Below, piece by piece: positions 3,294 through 42,056 of a DNA stretch of 64,000 bases. The notes beneath the pieces are model-generated. The model made no database searches. It was given only the letters and a program-made list of their open reading frames with translations, and was not told the origin of the DNA. The stretch lies in the sequence record OK272476.1, one strand, 5' to 3'. A program made the translations under genes and the position numbers. The DNA comes from Escherichia phage JLBYU24. How positions within the stretch are numbered: position 1 is the stretch's first letter; each line of letters opens with the position of its first letter.

Positions 3294-4496
3294 TTATTTT
3301 GTAATAATGTCAAACTGTTCTTTAAAGCAGAAGCTTGAATCTTGATGCTGATACAAAAATTCATATGCTTTTTCTCGCTCACGGTCATAAAGAGCTCGGT
3401 CAGATGACAGTTCTTTAATATGTTCAAATGTTGATTCCATGTCATTTTCATCAAACCAAATGATACCGCTATCATGCGAGGTCAAAGGATTATTATCAAC
3501 ACGGAATTTTAAATTTTCGCCAGTAGATTTCCAAAATACCGGAATTGTTCCACATGCACCAAGCTCGAGATGAGTATATTCTAAAGAACGTTGTAGATAT
3601 TTTTTATCCAACTTACTCAACTGATAACCAAAACCGGATTTACTCATGCGTTCAAGCATTTCGCTATTTACATAACGGTCAAGAATTTGCGTTGGCAAAT
3701 TAGGAGCAATTTTAATTTGGTCTACTTGATGAAGACGATAATACTCGTATGGAATTCCTTTTTCTTTAATAGGAATAAACGCTGGAGAACGTTCCAGACC
3801 TTCCATAATAGTACTTAGTCCTGCAGGTTTAAGATGTTTTTCATGAAAATCAAACATCTGATAAAAACCTTTCCATGTAGTAGTACGACCAATCCAACGG
3901 TTGATATTCATGTTAATTTCAGAAACATCTTTCCAGTAGGTTGATCGAACCTTCGCAATATCCATCGGAGGCTGAAAGTTATATACTGTCGGCGCTTCTT
4001 CAATATCATCAAACAGAGAAACTGTTTCAGGATACCACTCTTTCATCAGAACTTTATTAAAATCACCATTATCAGAATGGCTAAAAATAACATCAGCTCG
4101 ACGAACAGTTTCTTCTAATCCCAAATTTCGACGCAAAGAAAGAGAAGAATGGTCATGTTGATAAACTACAATACGAACAGAAGGTTTAATGTTATCAATA
4201 ATTTTTTTATAGTTATTAATCGTGTCTTCTTCAACCGAAGTAGCAGGAACCGAATTGATAATTAGAATATCACAATCATTTACCAGCTTAAGTGTTTTAT
4301 CATATTCTTTTGCCAATAAAACCGGAATTGAAAATGATTTATAATCATGCGCGCAATTACGAGTAAATGATTTATCTTTAGCATAAACCAAAGTTACTTC
4401 ATGACCATTTTTAATAAACCAATCACGTTGCTCGAGTGAGAATTTTGTTACACCACAACCTTCAAGACCTCGAGCCATAAAAATACATACTTTCAT
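3294..4496 (-). CDS. a-gt: DNA alpha-glucosyltransferase
   Basis: 400 aa, recalled near-identity to T4 alpha-gt, T4 position between 47 and 55. Confidence 0.9.
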   Translation of the reverse strand: MKVCIFMARGLEGCGVTKFSLEQRDWFIKNGHEVTLVYAKDKSFTRNCAHDYKSFSIPVLLAKEYDKTLKLVNDCDILIINSVPATSVEEDTINNYKKIIDNIKPSVRIVVYQHDHSSLSLRRNLGLEETVRRADVIFSHSDNGDFNKVLMKEWYPETVSLFDDIEEAPTVYNFQPPMDIAKVRSTYWKDVSEINMNINRWIGRTTTWKGFYQMFDFHEKHLKPAGLSTIMEGLERSPAFIPIKEKGIPYEYYRLHQVDQIKIAPNLPTQILDRYVNSEMLERMSKSGFGYQLSKLDKKYLQRSLEYTHLELGACGTIPVFWKSTGENLKFRVDNNPLTSHDSGIIWFDENDMESTFEHIKELSSDRALYDREREKAYEFLYQHQDSSFCFKEQFDIITK

Positions 4497-4739: not shown

Positions 4740-4946
4740 TCATAACTGCCACCATTTTTTGACTTGATAAGAATCAACCCACACTTTCATATTAGGGTCT
4801 GCTCTTACAATAGGAGGATTAACTTCTTTAATTGAACTATCATGGTATTCTTTTTCAGAAATTTTCACACAAAGATGACCATTCAAAGATTCAGTAAATC
4901 CTGCATTAATTTTAAGACGCTTGAATTTTACGTGTGTAAGCATCAA
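4740..4946 (-). CDS. Hypothetical protein
   Basis: ORF track, co-oriented tightly packed. Confidence 0.55.
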   Translation of the reverse strand: MMLTHVKFKRLKINAGFTESLNGHLCVKISEKEYHDSSIKEVNPPIVRADPNMKVWVDSYQVKKWWQL

Positions 4947-29678: not shown

Positions 29679-30214
29679 TTACTATTACAGCAGTAGTGTA
29701 CAGTGTCAATATGGACGCTATAAATCTTATCCATATCAGGAGATTTGACAGGCTCATCAATTATATACAAAATTCGCGAAAGCGATAAACCTCTGAACTT
29801 ACTTCCTTTATTACCAATAAAACTGCGCACAGAATCAGTAAATAAACGAAAACGTATATCATCATTAGAATAACGTGAAAATTCCTTTTTAATGTTATTT
29901 GCAGAAATTTTAGCGTAAGCTGAAGTATTAGAAAGAACAATAACTGTTCCGCCATCATACAGCCAATTAGCAGCAAAGTTAGTCACAGCAATTGATTTAC
30001 CGGATTGACGTCCACCATCTAGTCGAAGTGTACAATATTCTTTAAATAAATGCGACGAATCAGGTACATAAAATCCACTATTACAAATTTCTTCTACTCT
30101 AGCATCAGAATGGTGTGTAAAAGCATTCATCAGGGATAGATAAGGACCAGTTAAAAATGTTCTCATTTTATTCTCTCTAAATTTGGGCCATTCCGTGGCG
30201 CATGAATTGTCCAT
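29624..30214 (-). CDS. Small P-loop NTPase-like protein
   Basis: 196 aa; Walker A-like GGRQSGKS, Walker B-like ILYIIDEP, C-terminal Cys cluster CCNSKCC. Confidence 0.6.
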   Translation of the reverse strand: MDNSCATEWPKFRENKMRTFLTGPYLSLMNAFTHHSDARVEEICNSGFYVPDSSHLFKEYCTLRLDGGRQSGKSIAVTNFAANWLYDGGTVIVLSNTSAYAKISANNIKKEFSRYSNDDIRFRLFTDSVRSFIGNKGSKFRGLSLSRILYIIDEPVKSPDMDKIYSVHIDTVHYCCNSKCCIGGITRPQFFVIGMQ

Positions 30215-30307
30215 TTCTGTATTTACCCATTACCGCACTCAGGCTCGACCTTATCACAGGTTGGCGGGAATCCCTCACAGAATCATGAGGTCCAGCTTGT
30301 TCCCATA

Positions 30308-30781
30308 TTATTTGAACGATTTAACGTACTGAATAGAACCTTTACTATTCACAAAGGCAATTTTACCATTTTTATTATACATGGTAGCAGTACGTTGATA
30401 ACCATAAGTTTGTTTACCAGATTGATAACCAACTAATGCGAAATTATCTTCGCCCATTTTATTCTGTTTAGCGCGAATGCGTTCATGACCATGTGCCATA
30501 AGAACCTTAGCATCACCAGTTGCAATGGATCGACGAGTTTTTTCATCTTCAACTGTATTAACAAAGTCGTCAAATGAATCAAATTTAGCATGAGATTTAT
30601 TATACAATTTTCCATCTACTGCATAATTATATCCCTGTACATCCATCTCAACTTCTGTACCATCATCCAATACAGCAGTGATTTTTTGACCTTTTTTAAA
30701 TTTCAAAAGATCAGTAAAAGATTCAGCAATAATTTGAGAATTAATAGCTGCTTCAGTGATAAATTCTTGATATGTTTTCAT
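30308..30781 (-). CDS. Internal-protein-like (capsid-targeted) protein
   Basis: 157 aa; N-terminus MKTYQEFITEA matches the T4 internal-protein capsid targeting sequence; located beside denV/e as ipII/ipIII in T4. Confidence 0.7.
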   Translation of the reverse strand: MKTYQEFITEAAINSQIIAESFTDLLKFKKGQKITAVLDDGTEVEMDVQGYNYAVDGKLYNKSHAKFDSFDDFVNTVEDEKTRRSIATGDAKVLMAHGHERIRAKQNKMGEDNFALVGYQSGKQTYGYQRTATMYNKNGKIAFVNSKGSIQYVKSFK

Positions 30782-30790
30782 ATGTTTCCT

Positions 30791-31207
30791 TTAAATGTAA
30801 ATATTTTTACCGTAATACTTATACCAATGTGGTTTCATTAAAATTTTTTCATCAAGTCGTTGTTGACTCAATTTAATAGCTGATTTGCATGGATTATAAT
30901 CATTTTTCCATTCTACTGGAATATCGCTGATGTCAGGAACTTCAGTATCTTTTATACTGAACCCGCGTTTTAAGCATTCCGTTATAATGTCTAATTGACG
31001 CTTTCGCAAAAATTCTAACTTATCGTAAAAGAACGTAACATGACCAGAACCTAAAATAAACTCGGAAGATATTTTAAAATCTTTAACGCGCTTACCGTTT
31101 GCCACATGCTTACGAACTATACCAAAAACACGCGGCAATTCACGGTATTCTGCGATTAAATGTTGATCAGCAAGTTCAGATACTAAAGTCAAATTAATAC
31201 GAGTCAT
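30791..31207 (-). CDS. denV: Endonuclease V (pyrimidine-dimer DNA glycosylase)
   Basis: 138 aa, [17 protein letters not shown]...WYKYYGK recalled as T4 endo V. Confidence 0.9.
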
Positions 31208-31232
31208 TTTATCCCTCCAATTAACTGTGAAT

Positions 31233-31262
31233 ATACTATCACAATTCTAGGAGAAAGTAAAC
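31233..31262 (-). promoter_or_regulatory. Putative T4-type early promoter
   Basis: GTTTAC (31257-31262), 18-nt spacer, TAGTAT. Confidence 0.4.
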
Positions 31263-31266
31263 AACT

Positions 31267-32235
<969 letters not shown>

Positions 32236-32254
<19 letters not shown>

Positions 32255-32724
32255 TCAGTGATAAAGTTATTTAAATTTTGAGTGTATTTCTTTTCATCAA
32301 AAATCTTTTGCTGTCTGCGTAGCCGCCATGGCATTTCAATGAACACGCACCATATCCCAGATAATATTGCTGCTGTAAAAATATTAACAAGTATGGTTAA
32401 AAGAATCCAATCTCCTATTCTGTCCATTGGATTTTTTATAAAAAAGTAAAATACGAATGATGTCACAGGAAGACTAATAATATACCACAGAATCATAATT
32501 TTATCTGTGAACCAATCAGCGTTCGTTAACTTAGCACGACCATTATGAATACACACGAATTTATCATCTGTTATAATAGATGGCTTAGCTGCTTGATATC
32601 CCATTCTAAACTCCCTAATCAACAAATTTTTCATATCTTCGGAACAACCATTCCAGTCAACTCTATCAACTGAAATGCCATCATCCCCATCATCTAAATC
32701 ATACCAGCGAGTTTTTAAAATCAT
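32236..32724 (-). CDS. Membrane protein
   Basis: 162 aa, two hydrophobic helices. Confidence 0.6.
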
Positions 32725-33083
32725 TTAATTTTCCTACAATCACTCACAAACTCTTCCATTGATTCTTTTTCAATATAAGACATGTAGCTATTATATTCCT
32801 TTAATTGTATTTTGTAATCCTTTTTTCTTTGCCAATTTATTTTAAAATTATCATAATGAAAATATAACATTGTACCAAAGAATGAAAATAATGAAATAAT
32901 TTTAGTATAGTGAAGTTCACTCCAAACTTCTATTATATTTACTGTGCCGTCAATGTTTAAAATAAGACAGTCAATTAACAATCCAAAAAGACTACCCGCA
33001 AGAGCTGCAGCCAACGCTACAGCAAAAATTAAAAATGACTCAGGAAGAGAATATTTGACTTTATTTAGTTTTGGCTTTTGCAT
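32721..33083 (-). CDS. Membrane protein
   Basis: 120 aa, hydrophobic spans. Confidence 0.6.
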   Translation of the reverse strand: MQKPKLNKVKYSLPESFLIFAVALAAALAGSLFGLLIDCLILNIDGTVNIIEVWSELHYTKIISLFSFFGTMLYFHYDNFKINWQRKKDYKIQLKEYNSYMSYIEKESMEEFVSDCRKIK

Positions 33084-33478
33084 CGTGATTCCTTAACAAA
33101 TTTCATAATTTCATCAAATTCATGCGCAGCAAGTTTAAGCTGATGTTCCTTTTTAATCTTTTTACACTGAGCTTTCCAATCACGTACACGTTTACGATAG
33201 TGTCTTCCTTGATACCAATATCCTATCCAATTTATAGGTACTAATAAAAGCGGAACTACCAATGGAAGAATTAGTGTTGCTCCAAATATTGCACCAGATT
33301 CAATATCAGTCATAACGTCTATAACTATTCCAGCAATCAGCAGAATCATAAATGATACGGCTACCACAGGACCTATTAATACATCAGTAGAAATTATCTG
33401 ACGCTTTAATTCATACTTTAAGGGTTTACTTGGAAGATACATTGATGGCTTTGACATATTCTCTACATTCCTTAACAA
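33065..33478 (-). CDS. Membrane protein
   Basis: 137 aa, hydrophobic spans. Confidence 0.6.
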   Translation of the reverse strand: MLRNVENMSKPSMYLPSKPLKYELKRQIISTDVLIGPVVAVSFMILLIAGIVIDVMTDIESGAIFGATLILPLVVPLLLVPINWIGYWYQGRHYRKRVRDWKAQCKKIKKEHQLKLAAHEFDEIMKFVKESRCKSQN

Positions 33479-34031
33479 ATTTTTCTAATAATAAATCGCT
33501 TTCAAAATTAGGATTTTCTACGAATTTATCAAAAAGATCATCAACAATAGTTAAGATATTCTTTTTACTAAGAATACGTTTATTTTCATATTTTGTTTCA
33601 GAGTCAACTATAAGAGTAAAGAAATATTTCTTTCCCTGAAATTTTACCGTAGTATCAATATAGAACAAATTTGACTTTTGTAAATTACGTTTAAACCATG
33701 CGTCACTTAAACTGTAAACGCCAAGATAATCATAATCGTCATTTAAATAACAAACTGTCCATTCAGGAGAAATGAAATCAGTAAATTCAACATCAAAATC
33801 ACACGTCAATGAATGAATTGATTCAATACTTTTAATGAGTATTCCAGGACGTATTAAAGACTTTTTACCTTTATAAAATCCAGAAAGACTTTCATCAGTT
33901 TCATATGAAGAACCCCAATAATAATTACGTCCTTCTGCCATACGTTTAAGAGCATTTAATAATTGGTCTGGAACATCAACCTGTCTTTGGAACTCTTCAA
34001 ACATTGAATTGAAATCACTTTGCATTTTCAT
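33426..34031 (-). CDS. Hypothetical protein (201 aa)
   Basis: ORF track. Confidence 0.6.
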   Translation of the reverse strand: MKMQSDFNSMFEEFQRQVDVPDQLLNALKRMAEGRNYYWGSSYETDESLSGFYKGKKSLIRPGILIKSIESIHSLTCDFDVEFTDFISPEWTVCYLNDDYDYLGVYSLSDAWFKRNLQKSNLFYIDTTVKFQGKKYFFTLIVDSETKYENKRILSKKNILTIVDDLFDKFVENPNFESDLLLEKFVKECREYVKAINVSSK

Positions 34032-34051
34032 TCCTACTTACTCCAAGTAAT

Positions 34052-34067
34052 AGGGGCCGAAGCCCCT
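34052..34067 (-). terminator. UUCG-tetraloop hairpin
   Basis: aggggccgaagcccct; weak U tract. Confidence 0.4.
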
Positions 34068-34072
34068 TATCA

Positions 34073-34666
34073 TTATTTCAGAGAATTAATATATTCCTGG
34101 ACATCGGCAGAGGTAGTTTCAACCCCAGAAATATTGCCATTAAAGGTTTCAACTCGGGCAAGAGTATCTTCAATATCAACCTTAGTCAGCGCTGCAATTT
34201 CAACTACATCATCAGCAGTACTAATTCCAAGTGCATTTGCGGCGCGAGTTTCACGGATATATTCCAATTTAACCGCAAGTTCTTGACGAGCATCATCCAA
34301 TTCAACTACTTTCTTGGCGATTTCAATTCGCATTTCAGCATAACCATCAGCTTTAGTAGTCAACTGTTCAGCTGTTCGACGATATAGCAAGCCGAGTTTA
34401 GCATGCATTGTTACATCTTGACCTTCAGAAAGAAGCTTGCGAATTTCACGCTCTTTTGATTCGGCCTGCTTATTCTTTTCGACAATAAGTTCACGAATAC
34501 GCTTTTCTTCATTAATAGATTTAACAGAAGCAGTTTTTAGATCTTTAATCTTATCAAGTAGTTTTGCTGCCGCAGCAGTATACTGTTCTTCAACAGATAG
34601 ATTTTTAGCCATAGCAGAACCAAGTTTAGTGCGAATAAACTCAACAATTTTCTTCAGCATGTTCAT
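34073..34666 (-). CDS. Coiled-coil protein (PspA-like, low confidence)
   Basis: 197 aa, almost entirely helical/charged heptad-like sequence. Confidence 0.6.
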
Positions 34667-34710
34667 AGCATTTCCTTTAGTTAATTAAGGGTTTTATAAT
34701 CCGTGGGAGT

Positions 34711-34740
34711 ATTATACTCTACTCCCAAGAGTTTGTAAAC
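34711..34740 (-). promoter_or_regulatory. T4-type early promoter
   Basis: GTTTAC (34735-34740), 18-nt spacer, TATAAT (34711-34716). Confidence 0.55.
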
Positions 34741-35073
34741 TTATTCTTCGTCCAATTCATCAATAAATTTATCGATACTACTATTAATAGACTCATCGAT
34801 GATTAACAAAGCATCATCATCTATAATATTAATATTTTCTAAAGCATCAATATAAGCTTGATTGACTATAGACCATGCCCTTTGAAAATATGGGGCTTCA
34901 TCATCAGGACTGAACCAACGTACACCTTCAAAGATACGTTTAGCATAATCCAACACCCATTGTACAGGCATGTTTTGAGAGCGTTCATTAAACTCTTCAA
35001 AGTCCTTAGATTCAAAAAGCTCTTCAGGATAATAATTTCTATTACAAAAAGCTTTACTAAAGTTACGTTTCAT
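34741..35073 (-). CDS. Hypothetical acidic protein
   Basis: ORF track. Confidence 0.6.
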   Translation of the reverse strand: MKRNFSKAFCNRNYYPEELFESKDFEEFNERSQNMPVQWVLDYAKRIFEGVRWFSPDDEAPYFQRAWSIVNQAYIDALENINIIDDDALLIIDESINSSIDKFIDELDEE

Positions 35074-35099
35074 AATGTTCTCCTCAAAGTTATAGGCTC

Positions 35100-35129
35100 A
35101 TAATATCTCAATCATGAGCCTGTGTAAAC
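35100..35129 (-). promoter_or_regulatory. T4-type early promoter
   Basis: GTTTAC (35124-35129), 18-nt spacer, TATTAT. Confidence 0.5.
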
Positions 35130-35393
35130 TTATTTCATATTATTGAAATATTCTTCAGCAATTTCATCATTATCATGATAAACTTTAGAAGACAGTTTAA
35201 CATAACTTTCAGCAGTGAACATGTTAATCACAACCTTTACAGTATACCACTGACCATCTTCATTACCCATTACTGCGTAAGTTTCAAACAACGGATGATC
35301 AGGACCGATAACTTTAATATCATTCACTGTACGACCGAAATCTTCTGAAACACATTTCATAAAGAAGTTGAACAGCTCACCGTAATTATCCAT
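35130..35393 (-). CDS. Hypothetical protein (87 aa)
   Basis: ORF 35130..35456 trimmed to Met at 35393 (MDNYGELF, RBS GGAGA); upstream codons overlie a promoter. Confidence 0.6.
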   Translation of the reverse strand: MDNYGELFNFFMKCVSEDFGRTVNDIKVIGPDHPLFETYAVMGNEDGQWYTVKVVINMFTAESYVKLSSKVYHDNDEIAEEYFNNMK

Positions 35394-35436
35394 TTCATTC
35401 TCCAAGTTGTTTTCTGTATCAGTAGTTGATAGTTGT

Positions 35437-35466
35437 ATAGTACCATGGAAGGACAAGGATGTAAAC
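35437..35466 (-). promoter_or_regulatory. T4-type early promoter
   Basis: GTTTAC (35461-35466), 18-nt spacer, TACTAT. Confidence 0.5.
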
Positions 35467-35600
35467 CGTTTTGTGAAAAAATTTTTAAAAAGTTTTGGGG
35501 AATTCTAGGGCAGGGAGGGGAAATCAAAGGATAGGATAATATATTATAAAGGGTAGAAACTAAATGATGTCTAGAGAGGCCTGGAAAGGCCTAGATACCA

Positions 35601-35630
35601 AAAAGCCCCAACCTTTCGGCTAGGGCTAAG
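35601..35630 (-). terminator. GAAA-tetraloop terminator (copy 1 of a 30-nt repeat)
   Basis: Minus RNA AGCCCUAGCC-GAAA-GGUUGGGGCU then UUUUU, immediately downstream of ORF 35635..36108. Confidence 0.6.
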
Positions 35631-35634
35631 AATG

Positions 35635-36108
35635 TTATTTGATTTGTTTAGCAGACCAAATGCGGTCTTTAATAATTTTTTGGATGTCTTCAACATATTC
35701 AAGAGAGTGAACATGTGGGTTATCTTTGAAACTATAAGCACGAGCTAGCTTTTGGCCTTCAGTTTTAATTACTAAAAGCTCTTTAAGGATAGCTTCATAT
35801 TTGGAGATAATTCCTTTAACAATATTTTTCTCTTGTGCGACTTTAGGATCTGCTTTAGGAGCAGGTTTACCTGAAGCCTTTGCAAAAGCAGCTCCAGTAG
35901 CAACTAAACTTTTCCAGGCCATACTAACTGCATTTCCCGTAAATCCTTCCGCTTTCATATCGCGAGCAAATTGGAATCGTGACTCATCGGAAGCATCTTT
36001 ATAGGAATATTTACCCGCGGCAATGGCAGCTTTTGCAACAGCTTGAATTTCAGTGCTAGATGCTTCATTTAACACCGCTTCATTTAAAAATTGAGCATAT
36101 GATTTCAT
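35635..36108 (-). CDS. Internal-protein-like (capsid-targeted) protein
   Basis: 157 aa; N-terminus MKSYAQFLNEA resembles the IP capsid-targeting sequence; Ala/Lys-rich. Confidence 0.6.
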   Translation of the reverse strand: MKSYAQFLNEAVLNEASSTEIQAVAKAAIAAGKYSYKDASDESRFQFARDMKAEGFTGNAVSMAWKSLVATGAAFAKASGKPAPKADPKVAQEKNIVKGIISKYEAILKELLVIKTEGQKLARAYSFKDNPHVHSLEYVEDIQKIIKDRIWSAKQIK

Positions 36109-36154
36109 CTTATTTCCTGTTTTAATTTGTAGATTTAATATACTTATTTATACT

Positions 36155-36185
36155 AAAAAGCCCCAACCTTTCGGTCGGGGCTAAG
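36155..36185 (-). terminator. GAAA-tetraloop terminator (copy 2), end of tRNA/small-RNA transcription unit
   Basis: Minus RNA AGCCCCGACC-GAAA-GGUUGGGGCU (10-bp stem) then UUUUU. Confidence 0.65.
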
Positions 36186-36189
36186 CCTT

Positions 36190-36498
36190 GCGGCAACCTT
36201 GTCGGGGTTCCACCTGCTAAGGCAAGTGTTTGTACGAAACGCCGGGATTCGAACCCGGTTATTAAGTAGTTGACGCTACTCAATATTTTTAAAAGGCCAT
36301 ATCTCGACCATATCCGAACGTTCCGTCAAAAACGCTACTCGGCTTACGGCAAAGATATTTCCTCGAATCGATAATTCGGTGCGCCGTTTCTGCTGTGATG
36401 TAAGGGGGCATTAACCGATCGTAAAGATTTGTTAATGCCAGTCCTTACCCAGGGAACATCAGTCCGACGACTTACCGGTAGCGACCCGGTTTCTTGTT
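36190..36498 (-). ncRNA. Structured small-RNA region downstream of tRNA-Arg (candidate T4 species-1/species-2-type stable RNAs), including a tRNA-like element at about 36234..36325
   Basis: No ORF; canonical T-arm CCGGG-TTCGAAT-CCCGG with 7-bp acceptor pairing CGGAACG/CGTTTCG but a non-canonical 60-nt interior; 9-bp inverted repeat GGCATTAAC/GTTAATGCC. Confidence 0.45.
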
Positions 36499-36574
36499 TG
36501 GTCGAGGCAGTAGGGATCGAACCTACGACCTAGGACTTAGAAGGTCCTTGCTCTTCCTTCTGAGCTATGCCTCG
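36499..36574 (-). tRNA. tRNA-Arg (anticodon UCU), CCA encoded
   Basis: Manual fold: acceptor CGAGGCA/TGCCTCG, anticodon stem AGGAC/GTCCT, loop CTTCTAA, T-loop TTCGATC. Confidence 0.85.
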
Positions 36575-36578
36575 GATT

Positions 36579-36653
36579 TGGCGGACGTGATAGGATTCGA
36601 ACCTATAACCAATCGCTTAACAGGCGATCGCTCTGCCATTGAGCTACACATCC
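36579..36653 (-). tRNA. tRNA-Asn (anticodon GUU), CCA encoded
   Basis: Manual fold: all stems canonical; anticodon loop CTGTTAA. Confidence 0.8.
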
Positions 36654-36657
36654 AAAT

Positions 36658-36744
36658 TGGTGGGGAGTGATGGAGTCGAACCACCCGAGTCGCAATGACA
36701 ATGGATTTACAGTCCACACCGCTACCTCTACGGGATAACTCCCC
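36658..36744 (-). tRNA. tRNA-Tyr (anticodon GUA), long variable arm, CCA encoded
   Basis: Manual fold: acceptor GGGGAGT/ACTCCCC, anticodon loop CTGTAAA, long variable arm. Confidence 0.7.
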
Positions 36745-36756
36745 TAATTCATAATT

Positions 36757-36831
36757 TGGTGGCCCTGGGTGGAATTGAACCACCATCTGGCGATTATGAG
36801 TCGCTTGCTTGAACCTTCCAGCTACAGGGCC
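36757..36831 (-). tRNA. tRNA with CAU anticodon (Ile-lysidine type as in T4, or Met), CCA encoded
   Basis: Manual fold: acceptor GGCCCTG/CAGGGCC, anticodon loop CTCATAA. Confidence 0.75.
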
Positions 36832-36832
36832 T

Positions 36833-36908
36833 TGGTGCTGATTGACGGAATCGAACCGCCGACCTTCTCATTACAAGTGAGTTGCTCTACCTACTGAGCT
36901 AAATCAGC
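36833..36908 (-). tRNA. tRNA-Thr (anticodon UGU), CCA encoded
   Basis: Manual fold: acceptor GCTGATT/AATCAGC, D-stem GCTC/GAGC, anticodon loop CTTGTAA. Confidence 0.8.
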
Positions 36909-36913
36909 AAAAC

Positions 36914-37003
36914 TGGCGGAGGCGATAGGATTTGAACCTATGAGTCGCCGGAGCGACTGCCGGTTTTCAAGACCGGTGCATTAAACCACTCTGCCACGCC
37001 TCC
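36914..37003 (-). tRNA. tRNA-Ser (anticodon UGA), long variable arm, CCA encoded
   Basis: Manual fold: acceptor GGAGGCG/CGCCTCC, anticodon stem CCGGT/ACCGG, loop CTTGAAA. Confidence 0.8.
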
Positions 37004-37009
37004 AAATAT

Positions 37010-37660
37010 TTATATATTGTTAATTTGATTTAGAATTCTTTTTGCTTGAGTATGACTTACGCCAATATGCTTAGCATATTTAGACAATTCGCCACGTTTA
37101 GAAAAATCATATAATTTAGAAATTTCTATTCTTCTTTTTCTTTCATCCGCAGAAACTTTTGCTTCGTTTGCTTTTGCTATTTTACGTTTAGCTTCTTGAG
37201 AATGAGTTTTACCAGCAAAGCCATTCTTCATTAATCCATTTGAAGACCATCCTTTTAATTTTCCGTTAGAATGTGCCTTTTTAACACCCAATGAAATTAA
37301 TTCGCGTTGCTGATCTGTCATAGGATAATTATTTATATGGTCCCATCCACCTTCACCTCCAAGTTTTAAATTATACACATCTGGTCTATTTAAAAACTCT
37401 TCTGTGACAATATTTTTCTCGGCTTCAAGCATAGATTCTTTATCGTCAAAATACTCTAATATTTCTTTAGAAAAATTTTCTATACCATATTTATCTTGGG
37501 CTCTTTTTAATAATTTACCAGAACCCATATATCCATCATCTAAATTTTCGGTAGAATGCACACCAATATAAATTTTATTATTAATTTTATTTGTTATTTT
37601 ATAAAGATAAAAATGCATATCAGTCCCTAATAAAGAACTGAGCGTCTCACGACGAGTCAT
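37010..37660 (-). CDS. GIY-YIG homing endonuclease (Seg-like) inserted between the tRNA subclusters
   Basis: 216 aa; GIY-YIG motifs FYLYKITN...KIYIGVH, conserved R/E/N positions, basic C-terminal DNA-binding region; start may be Met at 37618. Confidence 0.8.
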   Translation of the reverse strand: MTRRETLSSLLGTDMHFYLYKITNKINNKIYIGVHSTENLDDGYMGSGKLLKRAQDKYGIENFSKEILEYFDDKESMLEAEKNIVTEEFLNRPDVYNLKLGGEGGWDHINNYPMTDQQRELISLGVKKAHSNGKLKGWSSNGLMKNGFAGKTHSQEAKRKIAKANEAKVSADERKRRIEISKLYDFSKRGELSKYAKHIGVSHTQAKRILNQINNI

Positions 37661-37664
37661 AAAT

Positions 37665-37738
<74 letters not shown>

Positions 37739-37743
37739 AAATT

Positions 37744-37832
37744 TGGTGCGAGAAGTGGGACTCGAACCCACAAGGAAATCATTCCGCAGCATTTTAAGTG
37801 CTGTGCCTTTACCAATTTGACCATTCTCGCGC
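37744..37832 (-). tRNA. tRNA-Leu (anticodon UAA), long variable arm, CCA encoded
   Basis: Manual fold: acceptor GCGCGAG/CTCGCGC, anticodon loop CTTAAAA. Confidence 0.8.
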
Positions 37833-37904
37833 TGGGAATAAAGGACTCGAACCTTTGCATCCTGGAATCAAAATCCAGTGCCTTACCAACTTGGCTAATT
37901 CCCA
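37833..37904 (-). tRNA. tRNA-Gln (anticodon UUG), 3' end abuts tRNA-Leu, CCA not encoded
   Basis: Manual fold: U1-A72 acceptor TGGGAAT/ATTCCCA, anticodon stem CTGGA/TCCAG, loop TTTTGAT. Confidence 0.75.
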
Positions 37905-37990
37905 ATTATTAACAAAGGCTCTTAAGCAAGAACCCTTGATGATAGAGGGTATTAATCAGTGCGGTATGAGTTAATAATAACAAATAATTC

Positions 37991-38506
37991 TTAAAGCAAA
38001 TTAAACATTTTAACAGTCGGCAAAACAATTTCTTTTTCTATATAAGAGTATTTAACACTCTCAACTACGCGCAGAAAATCATAATCATAATATTCAGAAG
38101 CACTGCCTAAAATATTAATAAGTCCTTCAAGCACTTTATTACCATTCACAAAGAATAAGTCAAATACACGTTCTTCGTCTTCTTCGGATTTATTACCAAG
38201 GTCAACTTCTATGTCAAAGACCTTTTTAATGAATTCTGGATAAAGTTGTTCTGAGAACAGTCCTTCAACCAAGTATTCATAAATAAAAAGCGATTGCTCG
38301 CTGAACAAGCCATTACCACAATAACGTTCAGCTTTAGTACTAGAATGTCTGCTTTTAAACTTCTTTAAAAGATATTGGAATTGTAAGATTTCATGCTCTT
38401 CTACGCCAAACAGTGTTTTAGTTTTATAGTTGTCACCATCATTTTCCCAGGTAGTGACATCAATTACGTAACCCTGTGGAATTGTAGTACCTAAACAAAT
38501 ATTCAT
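37991..38506 (-). CDS. Hypothetical protein (171 aa)
   Basis: ORF track. Confidence 0.65.
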   Translation of the reverse strand: MNICLGTTIPQGYVIDVTTWENDGDNYKTKTLFGVEEHEILQFQYLLKKFKSRHSSTKAERYCGNGLFSEQSLFIYEYLVEGLFSEQLYPEFIKKVFDIEVDLGNKSEEDEERVFDLFFVNGNKVLEGLINILGSASEYYDYDFLRVVESVKYSYIEKEIVLPTVKMFNLL

Positions 38507-38796
38507 TTGCTCACCATATTAATGTAAGTATATTCAATACATTCAAGACCCAAAGGATTCTTGAAAATATCATATTCAAGAGGACCTTTTTCCGTTTCAA
38601 TAAAGAAATCAAAATTTACTGTATTAAATTTACGGTCTTCCTTCACTAATTTAACTTGAGAAGATGAACGGTCAACATAAACCTTTTCAACTTCAAAACA
38701 TGTTAAAACACCATAATCATCAATCAAGGCTTTAGCCGCGTCTTGATCATATTTATATCCATTTTCAATTGATGATACTTTAGCATAAAGAATCAT
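38503..38796 (-). CDS. Hypothetical protein (97 aa)
   Basis: ORF track, ATGA coupling. Confidence 0.65.
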   Translation of the reverse strand: MILYAKVSSIENGYKYDQDAAKALIDDYGVLTCFEVEKVYVDRSSSQVKLVKEDRKFNTVNFDFFIETEKGPLEYDIFKNPLGLECIEYTYINMVSK

Positions 38797-38799
38797 TAT

Positions 38800-39189
38800 T
38801 TACCCTTCATCAACAATAGTATGAGTGTGGGCATTTACAATTTGCCACCAATCAAAGCGATTAGAACCATACATTGGTTTGTTCTCATTTTCTTTGATAA
38901 TGTCACGGAGTTCATCTTCGGTAGCGGCTTTCGCGATTAAATCAGCATATCCACCACGAGGATAATAATTATCACCTGCAAAAAGTAAAAAGTTTGGTTT
39001 AATATTATTAAACTCTTCAAGAGTAATAACTGTTCCGCCAGGTTGAACAATATCTACATAACTATATCCTAATTTTTGAGCAGCATCTACTGCTTCAAGC
39101 AGGGTATCATGAGCCCATCCAATTTGGCAATCTGGCTTTTCAGATGGATTAGCCTGATAATCCGCGTACACTTTATACATTCTATTCAC
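38800..39189 (-). CDS. Hypothetical protein (129 aa)
   Basis: ORF track. Confidence 0.65.
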   Translation of the reverse strand: MNRMYKVYADYQANPSEKPDCQIGWAHDTLLEAVDAAQKLGYSYVDIVQPGGTVITLEEFNNIKPNFLLFAGDNYYPRGGYADLIAKAATEDELRDIIKENENKPMYGSNRFDWWQIVNAHTHTIVDEG

Positions 39190-39367
39190 CTTTAGAAATT
39201 TTATCCATAACGATAGCGATTAAACCAATTAAAAATGCTACTACAAGTGAAAACACATTTTCTGCTGTAGTCAATAATCCGCATATAAATCCAACAAACA
39301 TTGAAAAACTAAAAGCAGAAGCAGAAATTGCAATAGCAACATTTCGAATTAATTCACAACGTTTCAT
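39182..39367 (-). CDS. Small membrane protein
   Basis: 61 aa, two hydrophobic helices. Confidence 0.6.
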   Translation of the reverse strand: MKRCELIRNVAIAISASAFSFSMFVGFICGLLTTAENVFSLVVAFLIGLIAIVMDKISKGE

Positions 39368-39395
39368 TTTATTCTCCTCGGTAGTTGATAGGGTA

Positions 39396-39425
39396 ATAGT
39401 ATCACTACCCTATCTAAAAGTAAAC
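39396..39425 (-). promoter_or_regulatory. T4-type early promoter
   Basis: GTTTAC (39420-39425), 18-nt spacer, TACTAT; spacer contains palindrome GGGTAATAGTATCACTACCC. Confidence 0.5.
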
Positions 39426-39659
39426 TTATTTTTTACGAAAAATTGATTTATTTTCTGCTGCCCATTTTTCAATAACTGCAGCAGGACCAGTAACAACAAT
39501 TTTATCACCGTAATCTTCTGCGGCGAGTTGACCGAAATTATCTAATGCATCACGAAGAACTCCATGAGGCATTTCACCCATTTTATCTTTCTTGCCGGTG
39601 TAAATAAACTCAACTTTTACATCAGAAGATTCAGCGATAAACTCTTTGAAAGTTTTCAT
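39426..39659 (-). CDS. Internal-protein-like small protein (77 aa)
   Basis: Starts MKTFKEFIAE (IP capsid-targeting-sequence-like); ORF-track entry 39426..39725 trimmed because upstream codons overlie the promoter. Confidence 0.7.
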   Translation of the reverse strand: MKTFKEFIAESSDVKVEFIYTGKKDKMGEMPHGVLRDALDNFGQLAAEDYGDKIVVTGPAAVIEKWAAENKSIFRKK

Positions 39660-39693
39660 TTTGATTTCCATTTGGTTTTGTTTTGATAGAGTA

Positions 39694-39723
39694 ATAGTAT
39701 CACTACTAAAACCCTGTGTAAAC
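39694..39723 (-). promoter_or_regulatory. T4-type early promoter
   Basis: GTTTAC (39718-39723), 18-nt spacer, TACTAT; ~65-nt region near-duplicated at 40004-40070. Confidence 0.5.
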
Positions 39724-39735
39724 AACTTTGTGAAA

Positions 39736-39993
39736 TTATTTTAAATCTTCTAATCGTTTCTTCATCTTAGAACCATTTTTAGCAATTTCTCCTGCATCTG
39801 AGCATAATGCTAAAAGCGCTTTAACTTTAGTTTGGTCTCCTTTAAAAGATGAAGGATCGACTGCAGCAGCAAGTTCTTTAATACGAGAGAAAAGACGCTC
39901 AGCTTCAGCTAAAGCCATTCCAAGCTTTACTTCCATACCGTGGGAAGATTCGGTGATAGTAGTTTTTGTAGCAAACTCTTTGAAAGTTTTCAT
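39736..39993 (-). CDS. Internal-protein-like small protein (85 aa)
   Basis: Starts MKTFKEFATK (IP capsid-targeting-sequence-like). Confidence 0.7.
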   Translation of the reverse strand: MKTFKEFATKTTITESSHGMEVKLGMALAEAERLFSRIKELAAAVDPSSFKGDQTKVKALLALCSDAGEIAKNGSKMKKRLEDLK

Positions 39994-40003
39994 TTTATTT
40001 TCC

Positions 40004-40033
40004 TAATTAATTTTGATGAGATAATAGTATCAC
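40004..40033 (-). promoter_or_regulatory. T4-type early promoter
   Basis: GTTTAC (40028-40033), 18-nt spacer, TACTAT. Confidence 0.5.
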
Positions 40034-40065
40034 TACCTCATCAACGTGTAAACAACTTTGTGAAA

Positions 40066-40762
<697 letters not shown>

Positions 40763-40763
<1 letters not shown>

Positions 40764-41476
40764 TATAGTACCTTTAGTGTATTTTTAATTTTAGAAAAAA
40801 GTTCTTCAAGAGAACCATCGTTTGTAATTACTAAATCGCCATCACGAATTGGCAATCCAGCTTCTGTAATATGAGTATCATTGGATTTTTGACCAGGACG
40901 AACTACATGAATTACTGTAGCACCCATCGCCCTAGCCGCATCCATTTCATGATCTTGACGAGTATCAGGAACGATATAATAATCATAACCTGAGTTAAAT
41001 TTATCAAGATAATCTAAAGCAAATAATTTTACCCAATACATGCGGTCGAAGTTATTAACAATCAAATCCGTACCTAGGGCTTGCATCAGACGACGGACTG
41101 ACCATTGATCTTCAATATTATTTATAACGTCAGCAATCTTGTTAAATGCTACGAAATTAACTGCGTCATCAAAAACAAACACACCTTTAATTGGGCTTTT
41201 ACTATTAAGATAGCAAAATGCTTGTTCCATAATCGTAATTACTTCTAATTTAGTCAGATTTAAATTAGTTTCACGATCATAGTCAATTCCTTCAAACTCT
41301 TTACGAGTTAAACAAGGATAGTCAGTGTTTGCTGCAAATACACCCCATGCATAAGCCAATGCATCTTTAATAGGACCAGCAAGTTGATATTTAACTGCAG
41401 AATAATTATTCATGATAAAATCTGCAGTAGTATCTTTTCCACTACGCTTTACACCACTTAAAAAGATTAGTTTCAT
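40763..41476 (-). CDS. 1: Deoxynucleoside monophosphate kinase
   Basis: 237 aa; P-loop LSGVKRSGKDT; T4 gene order. Confidence 0.92.
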
Positions 41477-41525
41477 ATGTTTCTCCTCAAATTTAGTTAA
41501 GATTATAACACATGAAACTGAAGCA

Positions 41526-42056
41526 TTAAACTTCTGCTATAATTTTACCATCTTTTTCTACTTGAAAATACGTATAAGGAATCGTTGCTGTACATACTAA
41601 AGCCGGGTCTGAATCTTCCGTGTAGCTAAATTCTACTTCAGACAGGTCAGAAACCCAAGGCTTATAAAAATTTATTGACATCACGATTTCAGTTTTACTA
41701 TTATCTAAAATGTAAAGCGTAATGTATTCAGGACCTGTTTTTTGGGCAGTATTTTCGCCTGTAAGATAGTTACTAGTTCCTAACATCCATTCATACATTC
41801 CTATCCACGACTTAAGCTCTTCATCAACTATAAATCTCACGATGAGTGGGTCGTACTCAAATGTAACTCCTGGACGTTGTGCTCTGCCCAGTCCAAACGG
41901 CCCAGTCACGGTATCAGTAACAGGTATCCTAATTCCTGGAATAGGAACTGACTGAGCATTTAAAGTAAAAGCAGATGTAGTATTACTATGCGGTATTGAT
42001 ACTACAAAGTTAGTTGTATTTGCTTGGTTAAAAATTTGTTGTAGTGCTTGCGACAT
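41526..42056 (-). CDS. 3: Tail completion protein gp3
   Basis: ORF 41526..42137 trimmed to Met at 42056 (RBS GAGGA), giving 176 aa as recalled for T4 gp3. Confidence 0.8.
   Translation of the reverse strand: MSQALQQIFNQANTTNFVVSIPHSNTTSAFTLNAQSVPIPGIRIPVTDTVTGPFGLGRAQRPGVTFEYDPLIVRFIVDEELKSWIGMYEWMLGTSNYLTGENTAQKTGPEYITLYILDNSKTEIVMSINFYKPWVSDLSEVEFSYTEDSDPALVCTATIPYTYFQVEKDGKIIAEV

Follow-up and report, generated by a model that had tools for sequence, protein, structure and literature searches.

The gene that the virulent phage JLBYU24 carries between its stable-RNA gene rnaC and the gene e.8 is bracketed by two near-identical copies of one transcription terminator. In close relatives, the same site is empty, holds a different gene or holds both genes in tandem, and every junction between these states lies in the terminator. 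We consider it likely, with a probability of about three in four, that the repeats serve both as cassette edges and as portable homology, and that recombination between terminator copies gives rise to four interconvertible states of the site. The cargo gene, which we term IPa, carries the signal motif of phage internal proteins at its N-terminus. Its product would be packaged into the phage head and injected into the host, probably as an anti-defense factor, and the empty site of T4 probably arose by deletion of the gene.

Two terminator copies flank a gene between rnaC and e.8

We analyzed a stretch of 64,000 nucleotides from Escherichia phage JLBYU24 (OK272476.1), hereafter the window. It belongs to the Tequatrovirus (T4-like) phages, which are virulent and hence have no prophage state. 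Positions 34700-37700 are 98% identical to several Tequatrovirus phages, and positions 35130-36580 reach 99.9% identity to phage GiZh. All genes around the cassette lie on the minus strand. Mapping of the T4 genes, together with a tRNA scan, gave the minus-strand order trna.4, trna.3, trna.2, nine tRNAs, rnaD, rnaC, the upstream terminator copy (T1 copy), a late promoter, IPa, the downstream terminator copy (T2 copy), an early-type promoter and e.8 (Table 1). The nine-tRNA cluster is broken by a segB-like GIY-YIG gene, and rnaC and rnaD are also annotated in T4, RB6 and GiZh.

Table 1 Features of the cassette locus in the window, listed in minus-strand order
Feature	Position	Strand	Remarks
rnaD	36378-36494	-	End of the tRNA/stable-RNA cluster, upstream of the cassette; blastn against T4, 88%
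rnaC	36233-36371	-	End of the tRNA/stable-RNA cluster, upstream of the cassette; blastn against T4, 99.3%
T1 copy (upstream repeat)	36150-36185	-	Terminator closing the rnaC unit; stem-loop 36182->36159, then TTTTT
Late promoter motif TATAAATA	36145-36152	-	T4-type; adjoins the T-run of the T1 copy and overlaps the repeat by TAT; ATG 36 nt downstream
IPa (cargo gene)	35635-36108	-	157 aa; preceded by Shine-Dalgarno-like AGGA
T2 copy (downstream repeat)	35595-35630	-	Terminator of the cargo gene; stem-loop 35627->35604, then TTTTT
Early-type promoter of e.8	35437-35465	-	TTTACA, 17 nt, TACTAT, TG extension; flank kept in T4
e.8	35130-35393	-	Downstream neighbor of the cassette; 95.8% identity to T4 e.8

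The initial annotation had described two 30-nt terminator hairpins, 555 bp apart and differing at two to three positions, on either side of the ORF that we now call IPa. The spacing, taken from start to start, was confirmed, as was the intervening minus-strand ORF of 157 aa. The right-hand copy lies at 36155-36185, as first described; the left-hand copy begins one base before the 35601 originally given and occupies 35600-35630. Each copy is 31 nt long rather than 30, and the mismatches number three, within the range first reported. The repeat can be extended to 36 nt at 89% identity (35595-35630 versus 36150-36185). No match to the 31-nt strings occurred in 100 dinucleotide-preserving shuffles of the window (maximum, 0), and the 64-kb window holds no third copy at up to three mismatches in 31 nt or up to four in 20 nt.

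Judged by sequence and fold, both copies are intrinsic terminators on the minus strand, with a 10-bp stem, a GAAA loop and a TTTTT run, and they share the minus-strand form CTTAGCCC(CGA/TAG)CC-GAAA-GGTTGGGGC-TTTTT. They are the best two terminator-like sites within 30000-42000. RNA folding gave -24.9 kcal/mol for the T1 copy (z = -4.2) and -18.5 kcal/mol for the T2 copy (z = -2.6), and the GiZh record annotates the T1 copy as a terminator. Read directly, the plus strand has a stem with an A-C mismatch and no T-run after it, which indicates that the terminators would act for minus-strand transcription only. Three transitions alter the 5′ stem arm of the T2 copy, with pairing in the RNA maintained by G-U pairs. 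We also considered the T2 copy (GCCCTAGCC) as a hybrid of the terminator T and the T′ hairpin that follows a second cargo gene, IPb (described below), and dropped this idea, as the three transitions explain the sequence equally well. A search of positions 35000-38200 against Rfam at gathering thresholds returned the nine tRNAs only, with no family match for the hairpins.

The late promoter motif is not enriched in the window, where TATAAATA occurs 13 times against 10.9 expected. The weight we give it comes solely from its position after the terminator, which is kept in four genera: the terminator-TATAAATA pair precedes the cargo in Tequatrovirus, Mosigvirus mar005P1, Dhakavirus 005 and Jiaodavirus phiKp_22.

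Relatives carry the site empty, with other cargo or in tandem

We compared the junction across related genomes, as the initial annotation had suggested, and found relatives that lack the gene and carry a single terminator. In T4, RB6, phage T2 and RB3, one terminator copy stands between identical flanks and the cargo gene is absent. The single copy lies at 4831-4860 in the T4 locus (L003) and at 971-1001 in the RB6 locus (L005). In both, it joins the e.8 side of the window (…GGCCTAGATACC) to the rnaC side (GCCTTGCGGCAACC…) with nothing between.

Other relatives hold other cargo. In RB14 (L006), the order is rnaC-T-IPb-T′-e.8, with the same upstream terminator and a different gene. IPb encodes 187 aa, starts with MKTYAEFLTEA and ends in a distinct hairpin, T′, whose overlap is limited to GGGCTTTTTGGTATC with T and to GGGCTTTTTGGTATCTAGGCC with the other copies. 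Since T′ shares so little with T, some of the boundaries are not full repeats. Phage DalCa (L007) and two IMG/VR genomes (L013 and L015) carry both genes, in the order rnaC-T-IPa-T-IPb-T′-e.8, with a third terminator copy between the cargo genes. The middle copy of DalCa has the 5′ flank of the window's T2 copy (…ACATTCTTAGCCC) and the 3′ flank of the T1 copy of RB14 (TTTTTAGTTTGAATCAC), as expected of crossovers inside the terminator. In a further genome (L014), IPa lies between an upstream copy with GCCCCAGCC and a downstream copy with GCCCCGACC, which differ only in the central two bases of the 5′ stem arm.

Across the empty, single and tandem states, all junctions lie in the terminator, and homology to distant phages ends there as well (query positions 461 or 1012 onward; junction query positions 29-102). 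Relatives do not all share two copies around a conserved cargo; they include empty, IPb and tandem states. The proposal in the initial annotation that the duplicated terminators are cassette boundaries generated by recombination is supported by this range of contents and by the position of the junctions.

We estimated the abundance of each junction by a census in which queries of 101-102 nt were searched against 50,697 phage records and a record was counted if at least 80% of the query was covered. The counts are approximate, as redundant records are included and BLAST pieces were joined: 289 records for the junction IPa|T|e.8, at most 129 for IPa|T|IPb and 46 for rnaC|T|IPb. Empty sites number roughly 100, a sample-based estimate derived from 9 single-piece matches among 24 full-coverage rows sampled of 279 records, since half-matches at filled sites were joined for the 102-nt empty-site query. 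The whole e.8-IPa-rnaC arrangement was found in 387 records. We rejected an assembly artefact as the source of the arrangement, given its recurrence in hundreds of independent genomes.

The content of the site is out of step with the similarity of its flanks. Over the 300 nt upstream, the nearest phage to T4 (empty) is KIT03, which has IPa (98.3%), and the nearest to RB6 (also empty) is RB14, which has IPb (99.3%); T4 and RB6 themselves are 94.9% alike. This mismatch points to repeated events at the site. Existing states can also spread by ordinary crossovers in the long flanks.

A rearrangement of another kind is present in phage F26 (L008, OP870145). Here, gene-sense positions ~3404-4103 form a 350-bp perfect tandem duplication that covers the final 82 nt of IPb, the IPb terminator and a further 230 nt upstream of e.8, including the e.8 start. 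IPa is shortened to 111 aa in this phage. The duplication may be genuine or may have arisen during assembly.

Terminator function and the similarity of the hairpins

The changes seen among ten hairpin variants cluster on the 5′ side of the stem, and most of them are transitions after which the minus-sense RNA can still form G-U pairs. One compensatory pair occurs among the ten (C-G to G-C, in Dhakavirus), and covariation is weak and not significant, with 41 of 500 shuffles reaching the observed score. This pattern of stem variation fits selection for terminator function acting on the RNA. A 27-nt stretch of hairpin core plus T-run, with three degenerate positions, is also present in unrelated IMG/VR viral contigs, namely a family mostly of ~38 kb, a 251-kb contig and others. 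This indicates that convergence can produce hairpins with a GC stem, GAAA loop and U-tract, and part of the similarity between the hairpin copies could be convergent too.

Taken further, functional constraint could have made the hairpins alike throughout, with the presence and absence of the gene resulting from unrelated illegitimate events. We regard this as very unlikely. The occurrence of the same core and T-run in unrelated contigs agrees with it, but the shared sequence reaches past the functional core, taking in CTTA 5′ of it and R-GTAT 3′ of it, and both copies have the same wobble positions. Convergence would also leave unexplained that the junctions of empty, single and tandem sites all fall exactly in the terminator element, and that Dhakavirus carries its hairpin duplicated in its own lineage-specific form. 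It is on account of the shared flanks and of the comparative and junction data, rather than of the hairpin by itself, that we take the two copies to be homologous direct repeats.

The core found in the unrelated contigs reads GCCC(C/T)(A/G)(A/G)CCGAAAGGTTGGGGCTTTTT. It occurs in the IMG/VR contigs L022-L027, L030, L031, L036-L039 and L041, several of them ~38 kb long, and also in L033, L034 and L035. Thirteen core-bearing contigs share their context, with …TAGTGTGTTAGGTGTGAAATT before the core and CTTTTT…AAGTGTTAAAAAGTGTTAA after it. The presence of the core in these unrelated contigs could reflect convergence or the horizontal spread of a terminator.

The site in other genera and the direction of change

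In every other genus sampled, the rnaC|e.8 site holds a gene of the PHROG 2280 family. In Mosigvirus moha, two diverged hairpin copies enclose an orthologue of IPa (~76% identical at the protein level, as in close relatives of moha), and Mosigvirus mar005P1 has a 208-aa product, IPc, encoded after a terminator and TATAAATA. In Dhakavirus 005, IPa and a 184-aa ORF lie between two identical copies of a lineage-specific hairpin variant, GGCCCTTCCGAAAGGTTGGGCC. Jiaodavirus phiKp_22 encodes a 177-aa product, IPd, after a terminator and TATAAATA, and its downstream hairpin is unrelated to the upstream one. Yersinia phage fHe-Yen9-01 (L021, 1922-3037) carries two PHROG-2280-type genes in tandem, 9 nt apart, with no terminator between them.

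The occupied site looks ancestral. Because the sites of Mosigvirus, Dhakavirus, Jiaodavirus and the Yersinia phage are all occupied, we infer that the empty site of T4 is more likely a deletion between direct repeats than the window gene is an insertion. The initial annotation had raised the idea of a gene inserted into a terminator. Its recombination boundary stands, but the direction of the event, given the occupied sites in the other genera, was probably the reverse, with the gene deleted in T4.

Another possibility is that a unit of internal-protein gene and terminator underwent tandem duplication and divergence, so that the terminators are leftovers of duplication rather than sites of exchange. 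Several observations are in line with this: IPa and IPb are both full-length PHROG 2280 matches, IPa, IPb, IPc and IPd show weak pairwise similarity, fHe-Yen9-01 holds two family members only 9 nt apart, and the recent 350-bp tandem duplication of F26 includes a terminator. We nevertheless judge it unlikely. Duplication does not explain why the upstream copy is part of the rnaC unit and is kept alone in T4, nor does it account for the precise empty and IPb-only states or for site contents that do not follow flank similarity. The two ideas are compatible, as duplication could have given rise to the family and terminator recombination to the present polymorphism.

A model of recombination between terminator copies

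In the model that we favor, recombination between terminator copies, the unit of tRNAs, rnaD and rnaC would end at the T1 copy and run straight into the late promoter and IPa, followed by the T2 copy before the early promoter of e.8. The direct repeats of 31-36 nt would offer the recombination machinery of the phage itself portable homology to act on. An exchange between the T1 and T2 copies within a genome would delete the cassette and leave a single-terminator site, as in T4. Where two co-infecting genomes carry different cargo, an unequal crossover joining the downstream copy of one to the upstream copy of the other would generate a tandem array, and the reciprocal product of such an exchange between (T-IPa-T) and (T-IPb-T′) would be an empty site. 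The population would thereby hold four interconvertible states (empty, IPa, IPb and IPa+IPb), and the outcome would be the shuffling of a family of injected proteins, probably anti-defense factors. We regard ordinary homologous recombination of the phage, acting on the 31-36-bp repeat, as the likeliest mechanism. In T4, fewer than 50 bp of homology are enough for recombination, and GGGC/GCCC motifs often mark the end-points of deletions in its hyperplastic regions.

Alternatively, the hairpin could be recognized by a dedicated factor, for example a nuclease of the structure-specific or homing type (a SegB-like protein being a candidate), with cassettes moving as circles in a manner resembling integron attC sites. 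Every cassette in the arrays is bounded by hairpins, and a GIY-YIG endonuclease gene lies ~0.8 kb away (37010-37660). Moreover, mini-circles of PeSL (promoter-early stem-loop) elements were found experimentally in phi1/RB49, and protein binding of their GGGG...CCCC stem was speculated (PMC2839356; PMC4122927). Despite these parallels, such specialized mobilization seems highly improbable to us: no recombinase is known or was found at the locus, ordinary T4 recombination on 31-36 bp of homology suffices, and the stem changes keep pairing in the RNA through G-U pairs and not in the DNA, which argues for selection for terminator function. A still bolder version is a long shot. It would make rnaC|e.8 a third internal-protein locus of the Tevenvirinae with attC-like hairpins, at which a phage factor, maybe linked to SegB, moves anti-defense cassettes as circles, forming an integrase-free array.

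The cargo gene probably encodes an internal protein

The initial annotation had labeled the cargo gene IP-like, and this label is justified by the sequence of its N-terminus, MKSYAQFLNE. Y4, F7, L8 and E10 occupy the key positions of the capsid-targeting signal, and an L-x-E cleavage motif is present. The protein at the ipIII locus of the window begins in the same way (MKTYQEFITE, with Y4, F7, I8 and E10). In IPIII, the first 10 residues suffice for head targeting, with residues 4 and 7 serving targeting and residues 8 and 10 serving processing, and gp21 cleaves after L/I-x-E. IPa is thus a probable head-packaged, injected internal protein. It resembles IPI, IPII and IPIII of T4 in its targeting-signal pattern with a gp21 L/I-x-E site, in its small size and in its variability between phages. 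Beyond the leader, no similarity of IPa could be detected to T4 IPI, from which it differs in this respect, or to the window's proteins at the two other loci. IPb and IPa share their first 11 residues alone (BLASTP with composition correction).

IPa was assigned to PHROG 2280, a family with no function attached, by a full-length match (E = 9e-61), and IPb matches the same family over its full length (E = 2e-53). Among the matches listed of 511 phage records, IPa is named 'hypothetical' throughout, and a search of a large protein collection with IPa returned 'hypothetical' names only. Neither IPa nor IPb has a Pfam match above cut-offs. The AlphaFold model of IPa is all-helical (mean pLDDT 73, pTM 0.41). 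Compared with BFVD and the PDB, it matched only its own homologues and gave no informative structural match, so no function can be drawn from the fold. These results indicate an annotation gap, in which PHROG 2280, 'hypothetical' among the matches listed, is probably a further family of packaged and injected proteins.

The gene lies outside both classical internal-protein loci (one next to 57B, the other next to e). Its position between rnaC and e.8 is ~3.3 kb from the gene at the ipI locus and ~4.9 kb from the gene at the ipIII locus.

The two family members of fHe-Yen9-01 are 189 aa (IPc-like) and 178 aa (IPd-like) long, and both begin with ML(Q/E)Y.EFLKE. In IPd-type proteins, the N-terminal half resembles IPa and the C-terminal half IPc, which suggests domain shuffling within the PHROG 2280 family.

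Relation to known variable cassettes

Morons of lambdoid phages, in the account given by Juhala and co-workers in 2000, are reportedly promoter-gene-terminator units inserted between genes. Their definition comes from temperate phages, whose prophages express them. Judging from its sequence motifs, the TATAAATA-ORF-hairpin unit that lies between rnaC and e.8 and is absent in T4 resembles a moron. It is unlike one in that the phage is virulent, the promoter is a late one and the boundaries are direct repeats of the neighboring unit's own terminator.

A closer parallel is offered by the internal-protein loci of the T-even phages. Repoila et al. 1994 (EMBO J 13:4181) reportedly described conserved blocks flanking variable internal-protein genes at two T-even loci and proposed that such blocks mediate shuffling between related phages. 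As at those loci, the variable genes at our site share only an N-terminal leader of ~11 residues, non-coding blocks bracket them, and ORF number, order and identity vary. The locations differ, with rnaC|e.8 here and, for the T-even loci, ipI next to 57B and ipII/ipIII next to e. The elements differ as well: those of 1994 are reported to consist of early promoters and weak AT-rich stem-loops, whereas here we find a strong GCCCC/GGGGC terminator and a late promoter. T-even internal-protein genes have been stated to be absent outside two loci, and Ip1-3 of T4 are placed in two loci.

Similarly, the PeSL cassettes of phi1/RB49 and other T4-like phages mediate insertions and deletions, and circles of them have been detected (Arbiol 2010, PMC2839356; Comeau 2014, PMC4122927). 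Like the element described here, PeSL is a short composite of terminator and promoter with a GGGG...CCCC stem, and it flanks genes that differ between close relatives. The mechanism proposed for it, homologous recombination on patches of less than 50 bp, possibly via circles, is of the same kind as the one we propose. The likeness is one of description, and the promoter sets the two apart, being early in PeSL and late here (TATAAATA), where it is found on the upstream copy only. No promoter adjoins the downstream copy, and the closest one of early type lies ~135 nt on. In contrast to the dispersed PeSL family, our element is present in two copies in the 64-kb window.

The shuffling principle is already published, for the T-even internal-protein loci in 1994 and for PeSL cassettes in 2010. 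What is new is the site outside the two classical internal-protein loci and the boundary of terminator plus late promoter; the mechanism is not new. A literature search by RB-phage ORF names, whose scope did not extend to the full text of Repoila 1994, found no paper mentioning the ORFs of the site.

Ip1-3 of T4 are injected with the DNA, and each disarms a different GmrSD-type restriction enzyme. Because internal proteins are injected and those of T4 disarm such enzymes, swapping of internal-protein genes matters for host range and for designing therapeutic phages. The locus offers a clean natural example of such swapping, with four states apparently linked by crossovers in an element of ~31 nt and represented in hundreds of sequenced genomes.

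Other variable features of the region

Additional differences from T4 were observed around the cassette. The SegB-like GIY-YIG homing endonuclease gene, on the minus strand, lies between tRNA-Gly and tRNA-Ser; segB of T4 is located elsewhere, between tRNA-Ile and tRNA-Arg. Only positions 378-652 of T4 segB match the window gene, at 99% identity. In GiZh, tRNA-Pro directly follows tRNA-Ser, where the fetched stretch ends, and the window has no tRNA-Pro. An ORF of 171 aa at 37991-38506 (minus strand), between tRNA-Gln and trna.2, has no T4 counterpart and is present in KIT03 and in Mosigvirus loci.

Internal-protein-like genes are found at three separate sites in JLBYU24. The gene at 30308-30781 (minus strand), the third with a targeting signal, lies at the ipII/ipIII locus and encodes 157 aa beginning with MKTYQEFITEA; its match to T4 ipIII is limited to the first ~32 nt. 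The gene at the ipI locus (39426-39659, minus strand) encodes 77 aa beginning with MKTFKEFIAE and is unrelated to T4 ipI past the leader. It is flanked by direct repeats of 24 nt, at 39385-39408 and 39683-39706, which are 96% identical and hold the -10 part of early-type promoters (GTTTAC…GATACTAT), the pattern published for internal-protein loci.

Finally, e.7 (34741-35073, minus strand) aligns to positions 100-336 of T4 e.7 only, at 88%, and positions 1-99 are not alignable. In RB6, RB14 and F26, an ORF of 58 aa replaces e.7, so that the site next but one to the cassette on its downstream side, beyond e.8, is variable too.
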